Positions 166-47,416 of a stretch of DNA of 47,416 nucleotides are shown piece after piece. Origin of the DNA: a virus (taxonomy: Duplodnaviria > Caudoviricetes); IMG/VR virus record IMGVR_UViG_3300027533_000037, positions 1-47,416 of that record. The stretch is one strand, 5' to 3'. The translations under genes and the position numbers were made by a program. The stretch's first letter is position 1. Each line of letters opens with the position of its first letter. Below the pieces are notes generated by a model that had not been told where the DNA came from, made no database searches, and saw only the letters and a list, made by a program, of their open reading frames with translations.

Positions 166-262
166 GGTTATTGCCACCGCTGGTAGAATAGGTGGTCTCG
201 GCGACTTCCGGCCGACTTACGGAAGGTTCGCCGTTGTCTCCTATCGGGTGTGCGAGGGATAG
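2..262 (+). CDS. C-terminal part of Cas7/RAMP-like (Vipr-like) protein; continues from 46809 across the junction
   Basis: Frame 2 reads GCGAATGWDYEDRRRVVVQRSGINRTRPAMKVGWSATFLLMVTLPEYISPQVLNEVIATAGRIGGLGDFRPTYGRFAVVSYRVCEG, stop TAG 260-262. The C-terminal glycine-rich loop GGLGDFRPTYGRF is RAMP-like. Confidence 0.85.
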   Translation, partial: GCGAATGWDYEDRRRVVVQRSGINRTRPAMKVGWSATFLLMVTLPEYISPQVLNEVIATAGRIGGLGDFRPTYGRFAVVSYRVCEG

Positions 263-586
263 GTCCGGCAGGGAGCGGCTTGGGATGGCAGGGCTCGGTT
301 AGCTATGGCCGGGGGTGGCATGGTCCGGCATGGTACGGGGCAGCAATGCCCGGCATGGACGGGTGAGGTGTGGAGCGGCTGGCCGCGGCGCGGTCTGTCT
401 CGGTACGGCTCGGGGGGGCCTGGTGTGGTGCGGCAGGGTTAGGTCGGATTCGGCACGCCGTGGGGCGGCTCGGAATGGCTAGGTGTGGTCAGGCGGGCGT
501 CGGCATGGCGCGGCCTGCGGGGGTGCGGAGCGGCATGGCAGGCTCTGGGTAGGCATGGTGTGGCGCGGCTGGCCCTGGTATGGTGC
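262..586 (+). repeat. Array of 65 GGYNN-type pentamers in unbroken 5-nt register (putative guide RNA array)
   Basis: GGTCC GGCAG GGAGC GGCTT GGGAT GGCAG GGCTC GGTTA ... GGTAT GGTGC. By hand count 63/65 start with G, 54/65 with GG and 43/65 with GGY; the last two bases vary freely. Confidence 0.93.
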
Positions 587-615
587 CGGTTCAGGACGGC
601 AATGCCAGCAAGAAG

Positions 616-786
616 ATGAGCCGACCTCTTGAGTGGCCAGAAATGCCGTGGCTGACGCCTGACATTGGCTATATAGGTGAGTGGCGCGGCATCCTGTTCG
701 TGGATGAGGTGGTTGTTGGCAACCGGCGCCAGCGTCGGCGCCGGGACAAAGCTGAATCGGAGGTAGACGATGGCACGATCCCATGA
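616..786 (+). CDS. Small hypothetical protein (56 aa)
   Basis: ATG 616, MSRPLEWPEMPWLTPDIGYIGEWRGILFVDE...; weak RBS; overlaps the start of the next gene. Confidence 0.4.
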   Translation: MSRPLEWPEMPWLTPDIGYIGEWRGILFVDEVVVGNRRQRRRRDKAESEVDDGTIP

Positions 787-1357
787 CGACAGGCCTACCG
801 ACGCACCGAAGCCCGCCGACAGGTCAAATCCGCCCGGCGCCGGAGCCCCCTCGCCGGGCGCCCTGACCGCCGACGAGCAGGGCCGGCTACGGGAACTCCG
901 CGCCAAGCCCGAGGCCGAGCGCTCGCCGGACGAGAAGACGGAACTGGCCGGGCTGGAAGCCCGCAACGTGCCGCAGCCCGCCGCCGTCACGGACCGCATC
1001 CAGCGCGACCTCTCGCCTGACCGCGCCCCGGCGCCGCTGGTCGACATGCCGAAGGATGACGCCAACCGGCTGCGCGATCTCAGAGTCGCCAACGAACTGG
1101 GCCGCCTTTCGGATGGCGAGCGGGCCGAGATGGGCACCCTGTCGATGGCTGAATCGGAGGCCGCCGGCCACGTCATGTCGCCCGACTCGCCAGAGACCGA
1201 GGATGACGGCTCCTGGGTCATCGACGAACTCCTCGGCATGATCGAGGCGATGGTCGACCTGACCCCGGCCTATCGCAATATCGGCCTCCGGGTGCGGACG
1301 ATGCGCGCCCGCCTGGAGGAGGCGCGCCATCCGGTGCCGGTACCCGATAAGGGCTGA
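770..1357 (+). CDS. Hypothetical protein (195 aa)
   Basis: GGAGG RBS; high-GC3 codon usage; directly upstream of portal. Confidence 0.75.
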   Translation: MARSHDDRPTDAPKPADRSNPPGAGAPSPGALTADEQGRLRELRAKPEAERSPDEKTELAGLEARNVPQPAAVTDRIQRDLSPDRAPAPLVDMPKDDANRLRDLRVANELGRLSDGERAEMGTLSMAESEAAGHVMSPDSPETEDDGSWVIDELLGMIEAMVDLTPAYRNIGLRVRTMRARLEEARHPVPVPDKG

Positions 1358-1382: not shown

Positions 1383-3605
1383 ATGTCTGACCTGCCCGCG
1401 ATCGCGCTTCCGCCGGAACGCGAGACCGTCGATCGCGACCAGGATTTGCTGGGGCGGCAGCCGCGCGGCGGCGCCTCCCCGAAGTCGGGCATCCGCGGCC
1501 ATCTCGACGATCTGTTCGATGACATCAAACGCGGCTTCGACGACCAGGAAGACCGCTCCGACGACATCCAGGATTATTGGGACTGCTATAACTGCGAGGC
1601 GAACCAACACCGTTATTACAACGGTATCGCCAACATCTATTTCCCGATCATCCACGACGCCATCGAGGCGATCGTCACGAGGTATGTTAACCAATTGTTC
1701 CCGCAGGGCGGCCGCTATGTGCAGGCGATCAGCGCCGACGGCGACACCGAATCCGCGCTCGTCGCGATCCTCGACCACTATATCCGCCAGGGTAGCGTCA
1801 AGACCCAGGTCGCCGAACCCCTGGTCAGGAACGGCCAGGTCGAGGGGCAATACAGCCTCTACGTGGACTGGGCCGAGGTCGAGCGGCAGATTGTTTCACG
1901 TGAAACACACGGCCCCATTGACCCAGAAACCGGCCAGGAAATGCCGGGCGAGGAAATCGAGGACATCACCGAGGAGACCGTCATCGAGGGCTACCCGGTC
2001 CTTGAGGTGTTGCACGACCCCGATGTTCTGATATTGCCGCCGACGGCCGACACGGTGCAGGAGGCGCTGTCCTGCGGCGGCTCCGTCACGATCGTCCGCC
2101 GCTGGTCCAAGGACAAGATCCGGGCGATGGCGCGGGCCGGCAACATCCGCGAGGACGAGGCGGATAAGCTCGTCGCCGAGATGGGCCGGGTCGGCGAGGA
2201 GGAGCGCAACACCGAGCGCCACATCCTGGAACAGGTCGGCATCCGCGACGAGGGGCGGATGGCGCAGGTCTGGGAAGTCTGGGCGATGCTGCCGCTGGGC
2301 AAATCCGGGCGCTACGCCGAGGATGGCCGCAAACGCCTCTGCCGCATCTTCTTCGGCCCGAAGCGCTGCCAATTGGGCGCCAAGCGCAACCCCTACTGGA
2401 ACGACCGCTGCCCGCTGATTTCGCGCCCGGTCAAGAAGATGGCCGGCGCCGCCAAGGGGCCGAGCCCGATCAAGTACGTGGAATCGTTGCAATATGAAGC
2501 AAACGATGCGGTTAACGAAGGTGCCGACGCGGCGACACTCAGTGCGGCGCCCATCGTTGCCCGTGACCCCGAGAAGGTGGACGGTCCGCTTGTTTACAAC
2601 GTCGGGGCCGTCTGGGATGCGCCTCCCGGTTCGGTTGAGCTTCTCACATTTCCCGACCTTACCCCTCGCGCGGCAACTCGCGTCCAAATGGCCCTACAGG
2701 CGATATTCCAGAACCTGAATGTCAACCCGTCGATGCTGCCGTCTTCCTCCTCGCGCACGACGCAGCCGACCCAGGCGCAGATCGCCCAGGAGCAGGCGGT
2801 CGACCTGCTGACGACGGCGATGGGTGTCTCGACCCTGGAGGACGTGTTGACCGAGGCGGTCGCCTGGATCGTCGACCTCGACTACCAGTTCCGCGACCGC
2901 AATATCCTGATCCGGATGTTCGGCGAGGAGGGCCGTAAGGCCGAGATGCAGTCGGTCAGCCCCCTCCAGAACCGCAACGGCCTGACCTTTGTCTGGCGCG
3001 GCGGCGAGCAGGTACGGCAGAACGCGATGATGGCGCAGCAGGGCACGGCGCTCCTCAATGTGCTGCAGAATCCCGCATTGGAGCAGCGCCTCAAGGCCGA
3101 GGGCATCCAGTTGCGCCTCTCCAAGCTGGTCAGCCAGATGGTCGCCAACGCCTTTGGCCCGGAACTGGGCGAAGCCATCCTGTTCGACCAGCGCAACAGC
3201 CTCTCCTTTCCGCAGGACCGCGAGAACGAGATGCTGGTGGCCGGGTTCGAGGTGCCGGTGCACCCGCTCGACAATGACGAGGAGCACATCCCGGAGGTCA
3301 TGCGGGCGATCCAGGAAACGGGTGACCCGCACGGCACATTGCGGGTCCACCTCCAGGCCCACCTCGCCCAGCGCGCCGCCAAGGTGCAGGCCCAGATGAT
3401 GCAGCAGATGGCGATGCAGCAGCAGGGCCAACCGCCGCGCCCCGGCCTGCCAGGACCCGCCGGCCCAGGCCGCCCGCCCGGCGCACAACCTCCGGCCCCC
3501 GGCTCGCAGCCGGCCGGCCCGCAGCAGATGCGGGGGCCTCCAGGTATGGTGCATCCCGATATGATGGCTAGGGCCGGGGGAATCTCGATGCCCAGGAAGA
3601 TGTGA
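1383..3605 (+). CDS. Portal protein
   Basis: 740 aa between terminase and scaffold/capsid. Typical podoviral portal features (N-terminal YFPIIHDAIEA, RCPLISRP, Q/P-rich C-terminal tail, DNDEEHI motif). Confidence 0.85.
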   Translation: MSDLPAIALPPERETVDRDQDLLGRQPRGGASPKSGIRGHLDDLFDDIKRGFDDQEDRSDDIQDYWDCYNCEANQHRYYNGIANIYFPIIHDAIEAIVTRYVNQLFPQGGRYVQAISADGDTESALVAILDHYIRQGSVKTQVAEPLVRNGQVEGQYSLYVDWAEVERQIVSRETHGPIDPETGQEMPGEEIEDITEETVIEGYPVLEVLHDPDVLILPPTADTVQEALSCGGSVTIVRRWSKDKIRAMARAGNIREDEADKLVAEMGRVGEEERNTERHILEQVGIRDEGRMAQVWEVWAMLPLGKSGRYAEDGRKRLCRIFFGPKRCQLGAKRNPYWNDRCPLISRPVKKMAGAAKGPSPIKYVESLQYEANDAVNEGADAATLSAAPIVARDPEKVDGPLVYNVGAVWDAPPGSVELLTFPDLTPRAATRVQMALQAIFQNLNVNPSMLPSSSSRTTQPTQAQIAQEQAVDLLTTAMGVSTLEDVLTEAVAWIVDLDYQFRDRNILIRMFGEEGRKAEMQSVSPLQNRNGLTFVWRGGEQVRQNAMMAQQGTALLNVLQNPALEQRLKAEGIQLRLSKLVSQMVANAFGPELGEAILFDQRNSLSFPQDRENEMLVAGFEVPVHPLDNDEEHIPEVMRAIQETGDPHGTLRVHLQAHLAQRAAKVQAQMMQQMAMQQQGQPPRPGLPGPAGPGRPPGAQPPAPGSQPAGPQQMRGPPGMVHPDMMARAGGISMPRKM

Positions 3606-4243
3606 TGTTGGAGTGGCGACCGATCCCCGGCTATGAGGGGTTATATGAGGTCTCGGCGGAGGGGGATGTCCGCTCTCTGCCGCGCCTGATCCCGTGCGCC
3701 AGCGGCGAATCCCGACGTTTCGCGGGACGGGGGCTCACGCCAGACCCCAACAAGTGGGGGTATTTACGTGTGACGCTACACCGAAGTGGGCGCCAAAAGC
3801 GATGCGGCGTGCACGAACTGGTGGCGCTGGCCTTTATTGGCCCAAAGCCAGTTGGCGCGTGGGTGCTCCATCGAGACGACGACAAGCGCAAAAATATCCC
3901 CGGTAATCTCTACTATGGAACCCGGGCCGAAAATGCCAAGGATGCGATAGCGAATGGCCGCCAGGTTCGCGGCAGCCGCGTATCGAACAGCAAACTTACC
4001 GAGGCCGATATTCCGTCGATCTTGGCGATGCGATCCCGCGGGGAAACCTACAAAGGGATCGGCATCGCTTTCGGCGTGGCGACATCAACCATATTCCAGA
4101 TTTGCGTGGGGAAATGGTGGAAGGAGGCTGCGCTGGCCATACACCCCGACCAACTATCGAGAGCTGGGGGCATCGGATTCCCGCGCAAGATGCGGCTTGA
4201 CAAAACCACATCTAGCGGTCTTACCCTGATCGTGCGCGCGTAA
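3602..4243 (+). CDS. NUMOD4-HNH homing endonuclease
   Basis: EWRPIPGYEGLYEVSAEGDVRS (NUMOD4), VHELVALAFIGPKP..VLHRDDDKRKNIPGNLYYGTRAENAKD (HNH), C-terminal HTH. Confidence 0.9.
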   Translation: MMLEWRPIPGYEGLYEVSAEGDVRSLPRLIPCASGESRRFAGRGLTPDPNKWGYLRVTLHRSGRQKRCGVHELVALAFIGPKPVGAWVLHRDDDKRKNIPGNLYYGTRAENAKDAIANGRQVRGSRVSNSKLTEADIPSILAMRSRGETYKGIGIAFGVATSTIFQICVGKWWKEAALAIHPDQLSRAGGIGFPRKMRLDKTTSSGLTLIVRA

Positions 4244-4303: not shown

Positions 4304-5110
4304 ATGTCGGACGATCCGAAACTTCCCCTGGTAGACGGGGGCGAGGAGCTTGACCTTGGCGAAATCGAAGAAGTCGAAGGGCAAGATGCCGGGCTTTATG
4401 GCGATGAAGCCGTCGAAGAAGGGGATGCCCCCGATGAAGGGCCCGATGGCGAAGAAGGCGCCGAAGAAGATGTAGACCCGAGCCCCAGGCGCCGGCCGGG
4501 CCGCTCCGAGCGGTTGCGCGAAAAGAACGCGCAGCTTGAGCGGGAACTGGCGGAGGCGCGGGGGTTCAGGCAGGCGGCGGAGCAGCTTCAGCGGTTCCAG
4601 CCCCAGCAGCAGCAGGTTAACGCCGAGGCGGAGCGGGTAGCAAGGTGGGAGAACGAAAATCTCCCGATGATGTCGGCGCAGGAGATCAGCGCCTACTACT
4701 ACAACAAGGGTATCCAGCAGACGCAGCAGCAGATGCTGATGCAGCAGCTGCAAACCGAGGACCGGATTGACAAGCGCGACTTCGACCAGCAGGCCCGAAC
4801 CAGCCGCGTCCACTCCCAGTACCGGGAAGAGGTCGAGCGCGAGCTTAATGCCGAGCGGCAGCGGGGAAACCTGCGCGCCTCGCGCGACGATATCCTGCAT
4901 CGCCTCGTCGGCCGTGACGCGGTTCAGCGTGCCGCGCGGGCAGCTCCTGCGCAGCGCCGCAGTGCGCAGCGCCGTGTTGAGGGCCAGCAGACGCGCCCGA
5001 CCAATGGGCGAGGGGACGGAGCCAGCGGCGGTCGCCGCCCGGCCCCCGGATCACCCGAGCACGACGAGATGCTCGTCCAGCAGTATTTCCAGGGTGGCGG
5101 ACGGTTGTAG
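4304..5110 (+). CDS. Putative scaffolding protein
   Basis: Acidic N-terminus, coiled-coil Q/E/R-rich body, immediately upstream of the capsid gene, GGGAG RBS. Confidence 0.7.
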   Translation: MSDDPKLPLVDGGEELDLGEIEEVEGQDAGLYGDEAVEEGDAPDEGPDGEEGAEEDVDPSPRRRPGRSERLREKNAQLERELAEARGFRQAAEQLQRFQPQQQQVNAEAERVARWENENLPMMSAQEISAYYYNKGIQQTQQQMLMQQLQTEDRIDKRDFDQQARTSRVHSQYREEVERELNAERQRGNLRASRDDILHRLVGRDAVQRAARAAPAQRRSAQRRVEGQQTRPTNGRGDGASGGRRPAPGSPEHDEMLVQQYFQGGGRL

Positions 5111-7514: not shown

Positions 7515-7547
7515 ATAATGCCCCTCCTGTTTCGGAGGGGGCATTAT
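7515..7547 (+). promoter_or_regulatory. Hairpin sequestering the RBS and start codon of the HNH gene
   Basis: ATAATGCCCCTCC (7515-7527) pairs with GGAGGGGGCATTAT (7534-7547) with one bulge; TATAAT at 7514-7519. Confidence 0.65.
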
Positions 7548-8142
7548 GGAGTGGAGACTAGTGGTGGGGTATGAGGCGTTCTACGAAGTGAGCGATCAGG
7601 GCGATGTGAGGTCCTTGCCTCGTCGCGTTGGAGCCAAGGATGGTGGGACGCGCGTTCGGAAGCCTCATGTGTTGAGGCCGATCGTCTGGAAAAACCAGCA
7701 CTGGAGGGTGAGGCTCACTGACGCCTCGGGGGTCGCGAAGGAGAGAAAAGTTCACCACCTTGTGGCTGCGGCGTTTTTGGGGCCACGTCCGGCCGGTATG
7801 GGTGCGCTACACAAGGACGATGACAAGTCGCGGAATTGTCTGGCCAACCTTTACTACGGGACGCCGGCCCAAAATACGCGGGACAAGATGGCGAACGGCA
7901 AGCACAGATACGGCATCTCTCTTGGAGAGAAGCACGGGCAAAGCCGCCTAACCGAGAAGGATATTCCTGAAATTCTAAGGATGCGCGAGGGTGGAATGAC
8001 ATTCAGAGCGTTGGCCGCGGCTTTCGATATGTCGGAAATGGCGATACAGAGTGTCGTGCGCGGACGCAGTTGGGGGTGGCTCTCGGGGGTCAAGTTCGAG
8101 CCCAGGCGCGGTCGCTATGTGACGGTTAAGAGGAGCGCCTGA
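7546..8142 (+). CDS. NUMOD4-HNH homing endonuclease
   Basis: MEWRLVVGYEAFYEVSDQGDVRS; VHHLVAAAFLGPRP..ALHKDDDKSRNCLANLYYGTPAQNTRD; paralog of 3602-4243. Confidence 0.9.
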   Translation: MEWRLVVGYEAFYEVSDQGDVRSLPRRVGAKDGGTRVRKPHVLRPIVWKNQHWRVRLTDASGVAKERKVHHLVAAAFLGPRPAGMGALHKDDDKSRNCLANLYYGTPAQNTRDKMANGKHRYGISLGEKHGQSRLTEKDIPEILRMREGGMTFRALAAAFDMSEMAIQSVVRGRSWGWLSGVKFEPRRGRYVTVKRSA

Positions 8143-35359: not shown

Positions 35360-36141
35360 GCCTTAAATTGCTCAGCTGGGCATTCGAGCAGGATCTCCCC
35401 TGCGCCGAAAAGATCGTGCTGCTGGCCCTGGCCGACATGGCCGACATGGACGGCAAGTGCTGGCCCTCGCAAACCCATCTAGCCAAGCGGTGCGGCATCG
35501 TCCGCGAGACGGTCAACCGGCAGATAAAAAAGCTGGTCAGCGCCGGAATGCTCCGGGTCGAACACAGGGCCGACAGGGATGGGCAACACTCAAATGTATA
35601 TTTTGTGCAGTGTGACGCAGGATCACATGTGACCCAAGATCACGTGACCAAAGATCACTCGGCACCTGACGGACGATCACTCGGGCACGTGACGGACGAT
35701 CACACAGAACCTTCACTTAGAACCTTCAAGGAATCTCCCCCTGTAGTCCCCCGCCGGGGGACGACGCTTACGGACTTCGAAAAATGGTGGGAAGGCTATC
35801 CGGCGAAGATCGGGAAGGGGGCGGCCGAGAGGGCTTGGGCAAGGGCCTGTAAGCAAGCCAGTGCCGGCGACATGATTGCGGGAGTTTCCCGCTATATCGC
35901 CAACAAGCCCGAAGACCGGGACTGGTGCCATCCGGCAACATGGCTCAATCAGAAGCGCTGGCTCGATGATTTTGGCGACAGCGAGCAGCGGCGCATCAAG
36001 CCGACCTCACCACCACCAAGACTGGAGAACGGCAATGCCGCCATCGGACGTGACAATGATCGGGTTTCCCAGCAAGGCGCATTACAGCGGCATTCGCAAA
36101 AGCCTGCGGAACCGGAGTTATTCCGGTCTGACCGATACTGA
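35356..36141 (+). CDS. Replication initiator (lambda-O-like, N-terminal wHTH)
   Basis: EKIVLLALADMAD.DGKCWPSQTHLAKRCGI.RETV; FEKWWEGYPAKIGK..HPATWLNQKRWLD; internal iterons. Confidence 0.85.
   Translation: MSLKLLSWAFEQDLPCAEKIVLLALADMADMDGKCWPSQTHLAKRCGIVRETVNRQIKKLVSAGMLRVEHRADRDGQHSNVYFVQCDAGSHVTQDHVTKDHSAPDGRSLGHVTDDHTEPSLRTFKESPPVVPRRGTTLTDFEKWWEGYPAKIGKGAAERAWARACKQASAGDMIAGVSRYIANKPEDRDWCHPATWLNQKRWLDDFGDSEQRRIKPTSPPPRLENGNAAIGRDNDRVSQQGALQRHSQKPAEPELFRSDRY
35612..35703. repeat. Five iterons GTGAC-N4-GATCAC (putative replication origin)
   Basis: Copies at 35612, 35629, 35644, 35666 (CTGAC) and 35689, inside the initiator gene. Confidence 0.8.
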
Positions 36142-37135: not shown

Positions 37136-37303
37136 TCACCCTCCCGCCGCGTCGATCATCTTCAGCCGCCGGGTGACGGCCGCAGCCTCGCGCTCGTCGA
37201 CCCGCTGGCAGATCAAGTCGCACCCACCCTTGCACGGGATGGGGCTGCCATCGGCGCCGCAGCGGCACCGCAGGTTAAGTTGTTGCGCCCTCTGTTTGTT
37301 CAT
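37136..37303 (-). CDS. Small Cys-rich protein (55 aa; not in ORF track)
   Basis: GGAGG RBS; MNKQRAQQLNLRCRCGADGSPIPCKGGCDLICQR... Confidence 0.5.
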   Translation of the reverse strand: MNKQRAQQLNLRCRCGADGSPIPCKGGCDLICQRVDEREAAAVTRRLKMIDAAGG

Positions 37304-44490: not shown

Positions 44491-46583
44491 GCGCGGCCCC
44501 CGACCTCGGCGCGGTCAAGGCCGAAATCCTCCAGATCATCTCCGCCGACAAGTGGAAGAGTCACCAGATTCTCTTCCGCCACCGCCACCAGTACAGCGGC
44601 GTCCCCACCGTGCCGGCCGAGTTCCACGAGGCGCTGGTTTCCGACTTTTGGAGTAGCGACCCCTATTCGATCATCCTCGCCTTCCGCGGCAGCGCCAAAT
44701 CGACGCTGGGCGAGGAGGACATCGTGCTGGCGGCGTGCCTGATGGCCTGGCGCAACATCGTCGTGATCTCCTCGAACGAGACCCGCGCGGCCGAGCGGCT
44801 GGCGGCGGTCGCCTACGAACTGACCACCAACCCCTTTATCGTCGACCTGTTCGGCGATTTGAAGGGCGACGCCTGGACCCAAACCAAGATCGTCACGACT
44901 ACGGGCGTCTGCGTGCAGGCGATCGGCCGCGACCAGGACATCCGGGGCATCAAGCACCTCGACCACCGGCCCGATTTCATCTTCGTCGATGACGTGGAGA
45001 GCCCGGAATCGGTGCAGACCCCGGACCAGCGCCGGAAGACGCTGAGATGGTTCCTCTCCGAATTGCTGCCGGCCTGCGCCCCGGAGCGCCGGGTCCGCAT
45101 CCGCGCGACGCCGATGGACGCCGAATCCCTGCCGATCAAGTTGCAGAACGAGTGGGGCTGGCCGACCAAGACGTTCCCGGTCGAGTACCTGGACGAGGAC
45201 GGTAAGCGCAAGGCGTCATGGCCCGAGGTGTGGCCATTGCCGAAGATCGACCGCGAGCGCCAGGGCTACGAGCGGGTCGGGGAATTGGCGGTCTGGGAGC
45301 GCGAGATGCTGTGCCGCGCCTTTTCCGAGAGCGACCGGATTTTCACCCGCGAGATGATAAAGGTGGCGCCCCGGGAGAAGACCTGGCAGGCCTGCTACGC
45401 GATGATCGACCCGGCCCGCTCCACGGGGCCGCAATCCGCCACCACCGGCTGGGCCGTGTGGTCCTGGATCAACAACCGCCTCGTGGTGTGGGCCGCCGAT
45501 GCGAGCTTCCTTCTCCCCGACGAAATCGTTGCCCTTGCCTTCGACATCCACGAACGGTTCGATCCGGTGTGGGTTGGCGTGGAGCTTGACGGCCTTGAAC
45601 AATTTCTATTGCAGCCGATGCGGCACGAAATGGCTCGAAGGGGGACTTATCTGCCCCTTAGAGGCGTCCGCGCTCCCCGCGGAAAGCTCGACTTCATCCG
45701 AGGGCTCCAGCCGTTCTTCTCGGCCCGCGAGGTCGAGTTCGCGCAAGCCCTACCAGTTCTCGCCGAACAGCTTCTCAACTTCCCGACGGGCAAGATAGAC
45801 GCGCCGAACGCGCTGGCCTACGCGCTGACAATGCGGCCGGGGCTGCCGGTCTACGACGGCTTCGGCGCCGAGCACATCGTCCCCGACCTCGCGCACGATC
45901 CGACCCGGCCCTTGTTCCTCATTGCCAACGCTACCGGCGCGATGACCGCGGCGGCGCTGGTGCAGCATTTCGACGGCCGGCTCCTCTTGTTGGCCGACTG
46001 GGTGCGCGAGGGCAATCCGGGCGAATTGGCGGGGCCTATATATAATGAGGCGGTGCTGTCGGCCGACGCGCCGCGCGACGCGCTGTTGCGCTCCCGGCCG
46101 CGCTCGTGGGACGCGATGCTGAAGGCGCCGGTGCCCGACCGCCTGACGAGCCGCAACCAGCCGCCCATCTGGATCGTGCCGCCGCACCACGAGGACAAGT
46201 ACACCAATGTCGGGCTGCTTCAGTCGATCCGGGCTATTCCGGCTGATCTGCGCCTCGGTGGCGCGGAGGCGGCCGGACAGGTTCATCTGCAAGATATGCT
46301 GGGCCGGATCTCCCGAGGCATGCCCGCTGTCGCGGCTTCCCCCCGAGCCCGATGGCTATGTCGTGCGTGCGCGGGAGGTTATTCTCGGGCCCTGGTGCGA
46401 GGCCGGCTCCAGGACGAACCGGAGCAGGGGCCGTACTCTCTCCTGATGGCGGCGGTCGAGAGCTTCCTGGGCCTCCAGCGCAAATCGTTTGCCTCGGACG
46501 CCGAAAGCGAGGATACGGATCAACCGTGGGGCGAGGATCGGTTCGGAAATAGATTCCGAACAGCAATGCCAGCTAGACGGTAA
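44487..46583 (+). CDS. terL: Terminase large subunit
   Basis: Walker A AFRGSAKST, Walker B FIFVDDVE, ATP coupling motif, nuclease MIDPA...KIDAPNALAYAL. Confidence 0.9.
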   Translation: MSAAPDLGAVKAEILQIISADKWKSHQILFRHRHQYSGVPTVPAEFHEALVSDFWSSDPYSIILAFRGSAKSTLGEEDIVLAACLMAWRNIVVISSNETRAAERLAAVAYELTTNPFIVDLFGDLKGDAWTQTKIVTTTGVCVQAIGRDQDIRGIKHLDHRPDFIFVDDVESPESVQTPDQRRKTLRWFLSELLPACAPERRVRIRATPMDAESLPIKLQNEWGWPTKTFPVEYLDEDGKRKASWPEVWPLPKIDRERQGYERVGELAVWEREMLCRAFSESDRIFTREMIKVAPREKTWQACYAMIDPARSTGPQSATTGWAVWSWINNRLVVWAADASFLLPDEIVALAFDIHERFDPVWVGVELDGLEQFLLQPMRHEMARRGTYLPLRGVRAPRGKLDFIRGLQPFFSAREVEFAQALPVLAEQLLNFPTGKIDAPNALAYALTMRPGLPVYDGFGAEHIVPDLAHDPTRPLFLIANATGAMTAAALVQHFDGRLLLLADWVREGNPGELAGPIYNEAVLSADAPRDALLRSRPRSWDAMLKAPVPDRLTSRNQPPIWIVPPHHEDKYTNVGLLQSIRAIPADLRLGGAEAAGQVHLQDMLGRISRGMPAVAASPRARWLCRACAGGYSRALVRGRLQDEPEQGPYSLLMAAVESFLGLQRKSFASDAESEDTDQPWGEDRFGNRFRTAMPARR

Positions 46584-46602
46584 TGACCGGGTGCGCTATT
46601 AT
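46574..46602 (+). promoter_or_regulatory. Sigma70-like promoter for the pentamer/Cas7-like module
   Basis: TAGACG (46574-46579)-N17-TATTAT (46597-46602); predicted start falls at the first pentamers. Confidence 0.55.
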
Positions 46603-46611
46603 GATGGCTGG

Positions 46612-46686
46612 GCCATGGCGCGCTGTGGTTTGGCTAGGGCGGCTTTGGTCCGCTTAGGCCTGGATCGGTTCGGCTAGGTAAGGTTT
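46612..46686 (+). repeat. Upstream tract of 15 GGYNN-type pentamers
   Basis: GCCAT GGCGC GCTGT GGTTT GGCTA GGGCG GCTTT GGTCC GCTTA GGCCT GGATC GGTTC GGCTA GGTAA GGTTT. Confidence 0.85.
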
Positions 46687-46799
46687 TCGCGGCCATCACC
46701 GCGAGAGAGCGCAACAACCAATCTTGAGCTTCCCGCTCCGGTTGTTGCTTTACGCAACCCCTGTGCATAGCGCTCCGGGCGTGATGGGACCGGAGCGGG
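46687..46799 (+). ncRNA. Structured RNA element (three hairpins, possible kissing loop)
   Basis: Stems 46687-92/46699-704, 46711-19/46740-48 and 46771-78/46790-97; CCATCAC (46693-99) complements GTGATGG (46781-87). Confidence 0.55.
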
Positions 46800-46808
46800 G
46801 AGACTGTT

Positions 46809-47416
46809 ATGGCGAGAAGTAAGGCTACTGCAGAAGTCGTCAGAATTGGCGGCGATGTTCCAACTAATGGATCTGACGAGGCTATTGCCTTTTTGGAACC
46901 GTTCACGGCTGAGGTCAGAATTGAGGGTTCGGCCGATATCCTGTTCCACCGCTGGAACCCGGAGGCGGTGGACGAAAAGGCGAAAGCGGCCAAGGGGAGC
47001 GCTGCAAAAAAGAGCGATAATATCGAAAGCTATGTTTATCGGAACGACGCGGGAGAGATTTGTTTGCCTGGAGAATATCTGCGCGGGGCTATAGTCGGGG
47101 CGGCGAAATTTCGCCAAGATCCGCGCTCTCCAAGAAAATCTGCGATGGACCTGTTCAAGGCTGGGGTGGTGTCATTGACCCCTTTGGCTCCGATGTATTC
47201 TGCGGCAAGCCGGGGCTCGGCAAGCGGCGGCAAGGCAAGCCACGGTGAGGCAGGGTGTGGCGCGGCGACCGGGTGGGATTATGAAGACAGAAGAAGAGTC
47301 GTCGTTCAGAGATCAGGCATCAATCGGACTCGCCCAGCTATGAAAGTTGGTTGGAGCGCGACTTTTCTCCTTATGGTCACGTTGCCAGAATACATCTCGC
47401 CGCAAGTATTAAATGA
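46809..47416 (+). CDS. N-terminal part of Cas7/RAMP-like (Vipr-like) protein, 234 aa in total across the junction
   Basis: GGGGAG RBS, ATG 46809, open to the window end: MARSKATAEVV..AEVRIEGSADILFHRW..ICLPGEYLRGAIVGAAKF..WDYEDRRRVVVQRSGINRTRP.. Lower GC than flanking genes. Confidence 0.85.
   Translation, partial: MARSKATAEVVRIGGDVPTNGSDEAIAFLEPFTAEVRIEGSADILFHRWNPEAVDEKAKAAKGSAAKKSDNIESYVYRNDAGEICLPGEYLRGAIVGAAKFRQDPRSPRKSAMDLFKAGVVSLTPLAPMYSAASRGSASGGKASHGEAGCGAATGWDYEDRRRVVVQRSGINRTRPAMKVGWSATFLLMVTLPEYISPQVLN
47204..47268 (+). repeat. 13 GGYNN-type pentamers inside the Cas7-like reading frame
   Basis: GGCAA GCCGG GGCTC GGCAA GCGGC GGCAA GGCAA GCCAC GGTGA GGCAG GGTGT GGCGC GGCGA (10/13 GGY). 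Confidence 0.8.
47252..47416. repeat. Terminal direct repeat / circular assembly overlap (copy 2)
   Basis: Matches 1-165 with 3 mismatches. Confidence 0.95.

Follow-up and report, generated by a model that had tools for sequence, protein, structure and literature searches.

The stretch of DNA analysed here (the window, 47,416 nucleotides) is a circular phage contig, its first 165 bases (1-165) repeating the last 165 (47252-47416) with three differences. At the 3′ end of terL, the terminase large-subunit gene, it carries a cassette made up, in order, of a promoter site, a leader guide tract, a tail of ~120 nt, a gene that we identify as vipr, and a 68-unit array (Table 1); past the array come a small gene, which in cassette-less relatives adjoins terL directly or past a short spacer, and then the remaining head region. 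The whole cassette is spanned by one contig of run X1, and the window also encodes a major head protein, a replication initiator, and ERF and YqaJ-like genes. A 150-nt spacer alone separates the leftover terL end behind the array from the gene common to cassette-less phages, and the cassette has no vap gene. This short spacer (620-770) contains a possible small ORF, and a comparable one follows the terL stop in the cassette-less alleles L085 and L120.

Table 1. Features of the cassette and its flanks, ordered along the circular contig
Feature	Position	Strand	Basis or remark
terL, terminase large subunit, 698 aa	44487..46583	+	ORF; PHROG 38, E 1.8e-50
Own, poorly matched target copy	46533..46570	+	8/13 (8/17); best self-match in the window
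Sigma-70-like promoter site, TAGACG-N17-TATTAT	46574..46602	+	Sequence; kept in L006
Leader vrRNA repeat tract, 16 fixed triplets and 17 NN	46605..46686	+	Repeat scoring, decoding
Hairpin, predicted 3′ handle, start of tail	46685..46706	+	Folding
Long branched tail stem	46729..46802	+	Folding; covariation
vipr, 5′ part	46809..47416	+	ORF; runs off the window end, resumes at the window start via the terminal repeat
13-unit GGY/NN tract, in frame within vipr	47204..47266	+	Repeat scoring, decoding
vipr, 3′ part with G-loop	1..262	+	Terminal repeat
GGY/NN array, 68 units	247..584	+	Repeat scoring
Leftover copy of last 10 terL codons and stop (RFRTAMPARR)	587..619	+	Directly 3′ of the array
Small gene 3′ of the insertion	770..1357	+	Marks the far side of the insertion

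In an identical locus (L010) vipr is intact and encodes 234 aa. Homologues number 6,696 among 7,781 candidates, and a profile of 72 of them matches the Vipr of SUSP1 (36pp_D, E 4.1e-8), with no other match under E 0.4; the 202 aa of the 5′ part, taken alone, match nothing in PDB or Pfam. A structural model of Vipr (pLDDT 83) matches chains of Csm and type VII CRISPR complexes (80 matches at E<=0.001), the predicted fold being Cas7-like. Of a class 1 CRISPR-Cas system there is no repeat-spacer array in the window and no cas family among the 31 proteins scanned. VIPR is a CRISPR relative described in 2026 (bioRxiv 10.64898/2026.04.26.720920): according to the available portions of that preprint, its guides consist of 9-16 GGY/NN units and a 3′ tail, and its Vipr filaments bind dsDNA, skipping one base for each dinucleotide, and repress transcription from either strand. 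By every defining feature examined the locus is a member of VIPR, having a stand-alone RAMP-fold gene with a G-loop, a pentamer vrRNA, a structured tail, a 1-nt skip and self-matches below 80%. It is a vap-less member; vap is typical of VIPR types II-VII and is not part of the required definition given in those portions (10.64898/2026.04.26.720920).

A first-pass annotation of this DNA had proposed a single guide RNA here, laid out as promoter, guide and 3′ handle, and our analysis supports that layout, the leader tract being the vrRNA of the VIPR system. The promoter hexamers are present as claimed (TAGACG at 46574-46579 and TATTAT at 46597-46602, spaced by 17 nt), with the −35 element overlapping the last terL codons, which also contain the altered copy of the guide's target. 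Because the site matches 9 of 12 consensus bases and one such site was found in 46300-47416 against 0.4 +/- 0.7 in shuffles, it is weak on its own. Relatives, compared by eye, lend it support: L006 retains TAGACG-N17-TACTAT although 5 of the 17 spacer bases have diverged, L009 has TTGACT-N16-TATGAT ahead of its leader guide, and no promoter-like site was seen before the leader guide of L005; no terminator-like site was found in 46300-47416. The tract itself comprises 16 in-phase triplets between 46607 and 46684 (nine GGY, five GCY and two GGR); its score is 21.5, where 30 order-3 Markov windows reach 13.3 at most. All 15 dinucleotides first read from it are correct, but the count of 15 units fell short by two further in-phase units (TG and GG) on their 5′ side; a transcript starting near 46609, as predicted, would have the GG unit inside the RNA and the TG unit outside. 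In X23, the sole genuine RNA run, no contigs cover the cassette, an absence that is uninformative there, and run X24 contributes one 182-nt identical piece within vipr that is probably DNA.

The hairpin annotated directly 3′ of the tract is indeed there, as just the first part of the ~120-nt tail, whose profile matches 11 of 80 vipr loci. The 3′ arm of the branched stem contains the Shine-Dalgarno-like GGGGAG of vipr, and 10 of the 36 predicted pairs in the tail stay paired via two-sided changes across five sequences; the stem is possibly a translational switch or a processing signal. Upstream, a conserved CGCRACA might form an alternative pairing. Rfam returned no family for 46500-46900, with one chance match at E 9.6, and an inverted repeat (37264-37293 / 46704-46733) that falls at an ORF start was set aside as chance. 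Another locus, L016, has the same tail ahead of vipr (~4717-4830), with a promoter-like site directly 5′ of the tail and two upstream guide tracts on the opposite strand.

Read as its reverse complement under a 1-nt skip code, the leader guide spells the C terminus of a terminase, a reading made by decoding before the viral database was scanned. A 10-unit gapped pattern (20 fixed bases) then gave two exact matches in 2.9 million viral contigs, both of them one terL allele that is cassette-less and runs straight into the next gene. This allele matches 12 of the 17 NN, 10 of them consecutive, and the skipped base falls on the codon wobble position. None of 200 shuffled guides reaches 12 over 181,792 bases, and skips of 0, 2 or 3 give background only (4-5/17 on all 12 terL ends examined). 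A gapped search of the reverse complement with one skipped base, as the first-pass annotation had suggested, therefore did find a target above shuffled background; its guess that the target would be a promoter or unrelated foreign DNA was wrong, as the match lies in close relatives, within coding sequence at the terL 3′ end. The AT-richness of the NN, on which that guess had drawn, is real (62.5% AT, in a window of 64.9% GC), and arises because the letters are supplied by codon positions 1 and 2 of E-D-R-Y-G-N-R-Y-K-T-A-M-P.

Decoded, thirteen variable units (46610-46671) give the terL end; the best allele matches 12 of these 13, a score that drops the first and the last three units, by a trimming chosen after the matches were seen; the full 17-NN score is 12 (71%), below the 80% that the VIPR paper takes as its cut-off. 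The first unit, upstream of the predicted start, is mismatched in all alleles compared, and the last three NN, matched by no allele, resemble the ends of the sister guides described below.

We compared 13 terL allele types, eight without a cassette in the sequence available and five with one. Those without match 12, 10, 11, 10, 10, 11, 10 and 12 of the 13 units, and those with, the window phage included, match 8, 8, 8, 8 and 9; none of the 13 types is a 13/13 match. The best self-match in the window, 8/17 or 8/13 depending on the units counted, is below the 80% that VIPR sets for self-targeting. At one Arg-Tyr pair all eight cassette-less alleles have CGN-TAY, where the carrier has AGA-TTC; the change from CGN to AGA is synonymous and yet escapes the guide, whose code disregards the third base alone, and AGA provides 4 of the 62 Arg codons of the carrier terL. 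A 99%-complete cassette-less relative contains no vipr match.

The leftover terL end was found in all six of the clade loci examined (6/6). It follows the array and starts mid-target, with six target codons upstream of the junction and seven downstream, and the insertion junction therefore lies inside the guide's target. Most simply read, the arrangement would mean that the cassette inserted close to the end of terL, bringing a replacement end that also provides the −35 element. In the terL tree (12 rows, L137 left out) the five cassette-bearing alleles make up one side of a 100/100 branch for both terL segments, so that a single cassette gain suffices, and no cassette was found on a distant terL background among the 13 allele types. 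Mosaic patches within the carrier clade, where guide, tail, vipr halves and terL ends occur in different combinations, show recombination, not drive. In L110 and L006, terL codons ~201-500 are 76-78% identical to the window and both ends 89-97%; judged by these identities, the middle segment is imported. L137, the sole genome match, is a contig riddled with frameshifts, binned under Verrucomicrobiae, and was not accepted as the host.

Two sister cassettes, L005 and L006, have different leader guides that likewise match the terL 3′ region. In L005 the vipr match is 99% identical, the guide is different and on the other strand, and the terL end is strongly changed (61% identity over the last 25 codons). 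The best match of this guide over 182 kb is the terL end (10/16; 0/200 shuffles), and its scores by allele are 7 on its own, 9-11 on cassette-less alleles and 8-9 on other carriers. The L006 guide matches ~150 nt upstream of the terL stop (9/14, 8 consecutive; 1/200 shuffles), with the skip on codon position 1, not 3; it scores 9/14 in L083 and L085, 6 on its own allele and 5-6 on the other five cassette-less alleles. For all three leader guides, then, the own allele gives a lower score than the best foreign allele, and all three aim within ~200 nt of the insertion junction.

The tract inside vipr decodes to AKGSKAKKTD, the family consensus, at a place where the window's own vipr has AKGSAAKKSD, and from this decoding it is likely an anti-vipr guide. 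Its position is a poorly resolved loop in the model, with pLDDT under 50 at 137-148. Against 80 vipr loci it scores 10/14 in 10 (three with 10 consecutive), 8-9 in 39 and <=7 in 31, the carrier clade at 7 among these last, and other skips give at most 7. Among the loci listed, the tract is confined to the carrier clade; an in-frame anti-vipr guide was not found in the available portions of 10.64898/2026.10.15.759431. For the 68-unit array no window exceeded shuffles in 182 kb or in 2.26 Mb of masked loci, and two 8-unit seeds from it had one and eight exact viral matches, none extending by >2 flanking units. The first array segment of L005 (~2993-3050) matches the coding end of the vipr G-loop at 7/12 and is likely another anti-vipr guide. 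L027 has very long arrays either side of vipr (83, 115, 99 and 51 units).

Matches close to the cassette recur in other vipr loci, in counts for which loci were not dereplicated by lineage. In 80 loci, which give 552 distinct 12-unit windows, we counted 17 matches of >=7 units no farther than 300 nt from the tract, versus 2.2 for shuffled order, and beyond 1 kb there is no excess (26 versus 25.8). With the six clade loci left out (74 loci, 512 windows), there are 8 upstream within 400 nt versus 1.4 shuffled, 6 downstream versus 1.4, and 5 inside vipr versus 2.1; combined, 14 lie within 400 nt of the cassette versus 2.7, in 12 loci, and farther away no excess is seen (25 versus 22.4). Partial matches to the upstream flank, often the adjacent gene, occur in L034, L044, L053, L057, L062, L067, L081 and L082, and to the downstream flank in L020, L060, L067, L074 and L075. 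The one test of generality was negative: the L057 guide matched its own flank gene at 8/15 and two homologues at 6 and 7, and a scan with its 10-unit pattern gave 0 matches; the test is weak because the homologues are just 57-58% identical.

That the guide letters match the same spot in cassette-less relatives suggests that the Vipr-guide complex likely binds there. We consider it probable, on the pattern of matches across alleles, that leader guide and Vipr together silence cassette-less kin in an allele-specific way while the altered terL of the carrier is spared; the system is best read as arranged like a free-standing homing endonuclease, minus the nuclease. The site at 46574-46602 would give rise to a guide RNA of ~80-100 nt, which Vipr would coat, and the complex would bind the last terL codons of a relative, co-infecting or resident, at a point directly before the next gene begins, blocking transcription through the terL end into the head genes. 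Its altered terL end would let the carrier escape, self-immune at 8/13 units, and the benefit would be felt in co-infection or superinfection. Several points count against silencing: the L006 guide fits just two of seven cassette-less alleles well; SUSP1 needs vap in natural infection, according to the available portions of 10.64898/2026.10.15.759431, and this cassette is without it; co-infecting relatives might share head proteins, which would blunt the effect; and the 17-NN score stands at 71%, with no RNA support in run X23.

The same complex might instead drive a nuclease-free, RNA-guided form of homing, stalling replication or packaging of the empty allele so that recombination copies the cassette together with the altered terL end. 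A junction inside the target, a leftover terL end in 6/6 clade loci, three different leader guides within ~200 nt of that junction and the flank matches of the 74 other loci (14 versus 2.7 shuffled) would all fit, as would the ERF and YqaJ-like genes that the phage carries; free-standing homing endonucleases, moreover, are described in the portions available as cutting neighbouring genes of kin (PMC2988022), often near terminase genes (PMC10055350). However, neither a nuclease nor vap is present in the cassette, one gain explains the tree with no distant terL background bearing the cassette (13 allele types), and the published activity of Vipr is repression; we regard homing here as unlikely. 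The wider proposition that many VIPR cassettes are nuclease-free, RNA-programmed homing elements, each with guides aimed at its own vacant site and a recoded replacement gene end, and spreading among kin by binding-induced recombination, seems to us equally doubtful.

Silencing must also be weighed against a reading in which guides are templated from cassette-adjacent DNA and the carrier copy then drifts or has to change, no action on kin being selected. The flank-biased partial self-matches (12/74 loci) would be expected of it, the L057 guide leans that way (8/15 on self versus 6 and 7 on homologues, pattern 0 matches), and the allele matched best, L083, belongs to the carrier clade's sister group, where an ancestral state might be expected. 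Yet every one of the three guides scores lower on its own than on the best foreign allele, the guide has been replaced at least twice and is still on terL, and the L057 comparison is the weak one noted above; a by-product of acquisition we hold to be very improbable. Similarly slim, in our judgement, are the chances that the guide is aimed at cassette-bearing kin as an anti-VIPR device. The footprint (46533-46570) ends 3 nt before the −35 element at 46574, so that binding would shut a rival's promoter for guide and vipr; there are published guides that target the vipr and vrRNAs of kin (10.64898/2026.10.15.759431, in the portions available), the L005 guide scores 9/16 on the window allele versus 7 on its own, and the in-gene tract appears aimed at vipr. 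Against this, all five cassette-bearing alleles match worse (8-9/13) than all eight cassette-less ones (10-12).

VIPR itself is known; a guide that targets the vacant form of the cassette's own site was not found in the searched portions of the VIPR preprints. The locus resembles VIPR as presented in the available portions of its sources (10.64898/2026.04.26.720920; 10.64898/2026.04.26.720927; PDB 36pp) in its single RAMP-fold gene, GGY/NN guide and structured 3′ tail, in having one guide upstream and an array downstream, in the 1-nt skip at the wobble base, in a self-match of <80% and in being phage-borne. It differs in that the targets reported there are satellites, resident prophages, viral sequences and other VIPR loci, whereas here the target is the own-site empty allele, and in that here there is no vap, a duplicated terL end flanks the cassette and a guide tract lies in frame inside vipr. 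The anti-VIPR and solo vrRNAs of the SUSP1 family (10.64898/2026.10.15.759431, available portions) are similar in their kin-aimed guides, in self scores lower than non-self scores and in including anti-vipr guides, but aim at vipr, vrRNAs and satellites, where the leader guide here is on an essential virion gene of VIPR-less relatives. The target tables of the VIPR preprints, outside that search, may list targets of the own-site kind; homing is not mentioned in the portions searched of the VIPR literature other than the structure preprint, which lay outside that term search. The word terminase does not occur in the searched portions of 10.64898/2026.04.26.720920 or in one supplementary file, and occurs twice, in the methods, in those of the competition paper (10.64898/2026.10.15.759431). 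'Mismatch' and 'seed' are absent from the available portions of the structure preprint (10.64898/2026.04.26.720927). Literature on VIPR and homing, and on RNA-guided phage homing, yielded nothing matching such an arrangement.

Phage free-standing homing endonucleases (T4 seg, mob; PMC2988022; PMC10055350), going by the portions available, share with the cassette a position between conserved genes, in the terminase neighbourhood, a target in the adjacent essential gene of element-less kin and a promoter within the 3′ end of the preceding gene. As in a homing element, the target here lies in the element-less allele near the insertion site and the own site differs (8/13 versus 10-12); unlike those endonucleases, the cassette is RNA-programmed and encodes no nuclease (PMC2988022; PMC10055350). 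The TnpB homing nucleases of IS605 (PMC10690162, PMC10055086, likewise in part) are similar in having a guide RNA aimed at their own vacant site; TnpB, however, is a transposon nuclease that cuts by means of a contiguous guide, while Vipr reads a gapped code in binding and is not known to cut. The own-site empty allele, as an added target class, links VIPR to both homing endonucleases and TnpB, and such targeting could explain why essential phage operons harbour VIPR cassettes. Should the flank bias (12/74 other loci) hold, it bears on how vrRNA guides are acquired. The locus offers a natural guide together with its exact cognate target, a non-target allele also found in nature and, on a single gene, three independent guides, a set with which mismatch tolerance and kin discrimination are directly testable.

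Two NUMOD4-HNH genes, homing-endonuclease-like, lie in the head region outside the cassette (3602-4243 and 7546-8142), and tandem repeats with periods of 15 and 23 lie inside the replication initiator gene (35611-35703), possibly as origin iterons.
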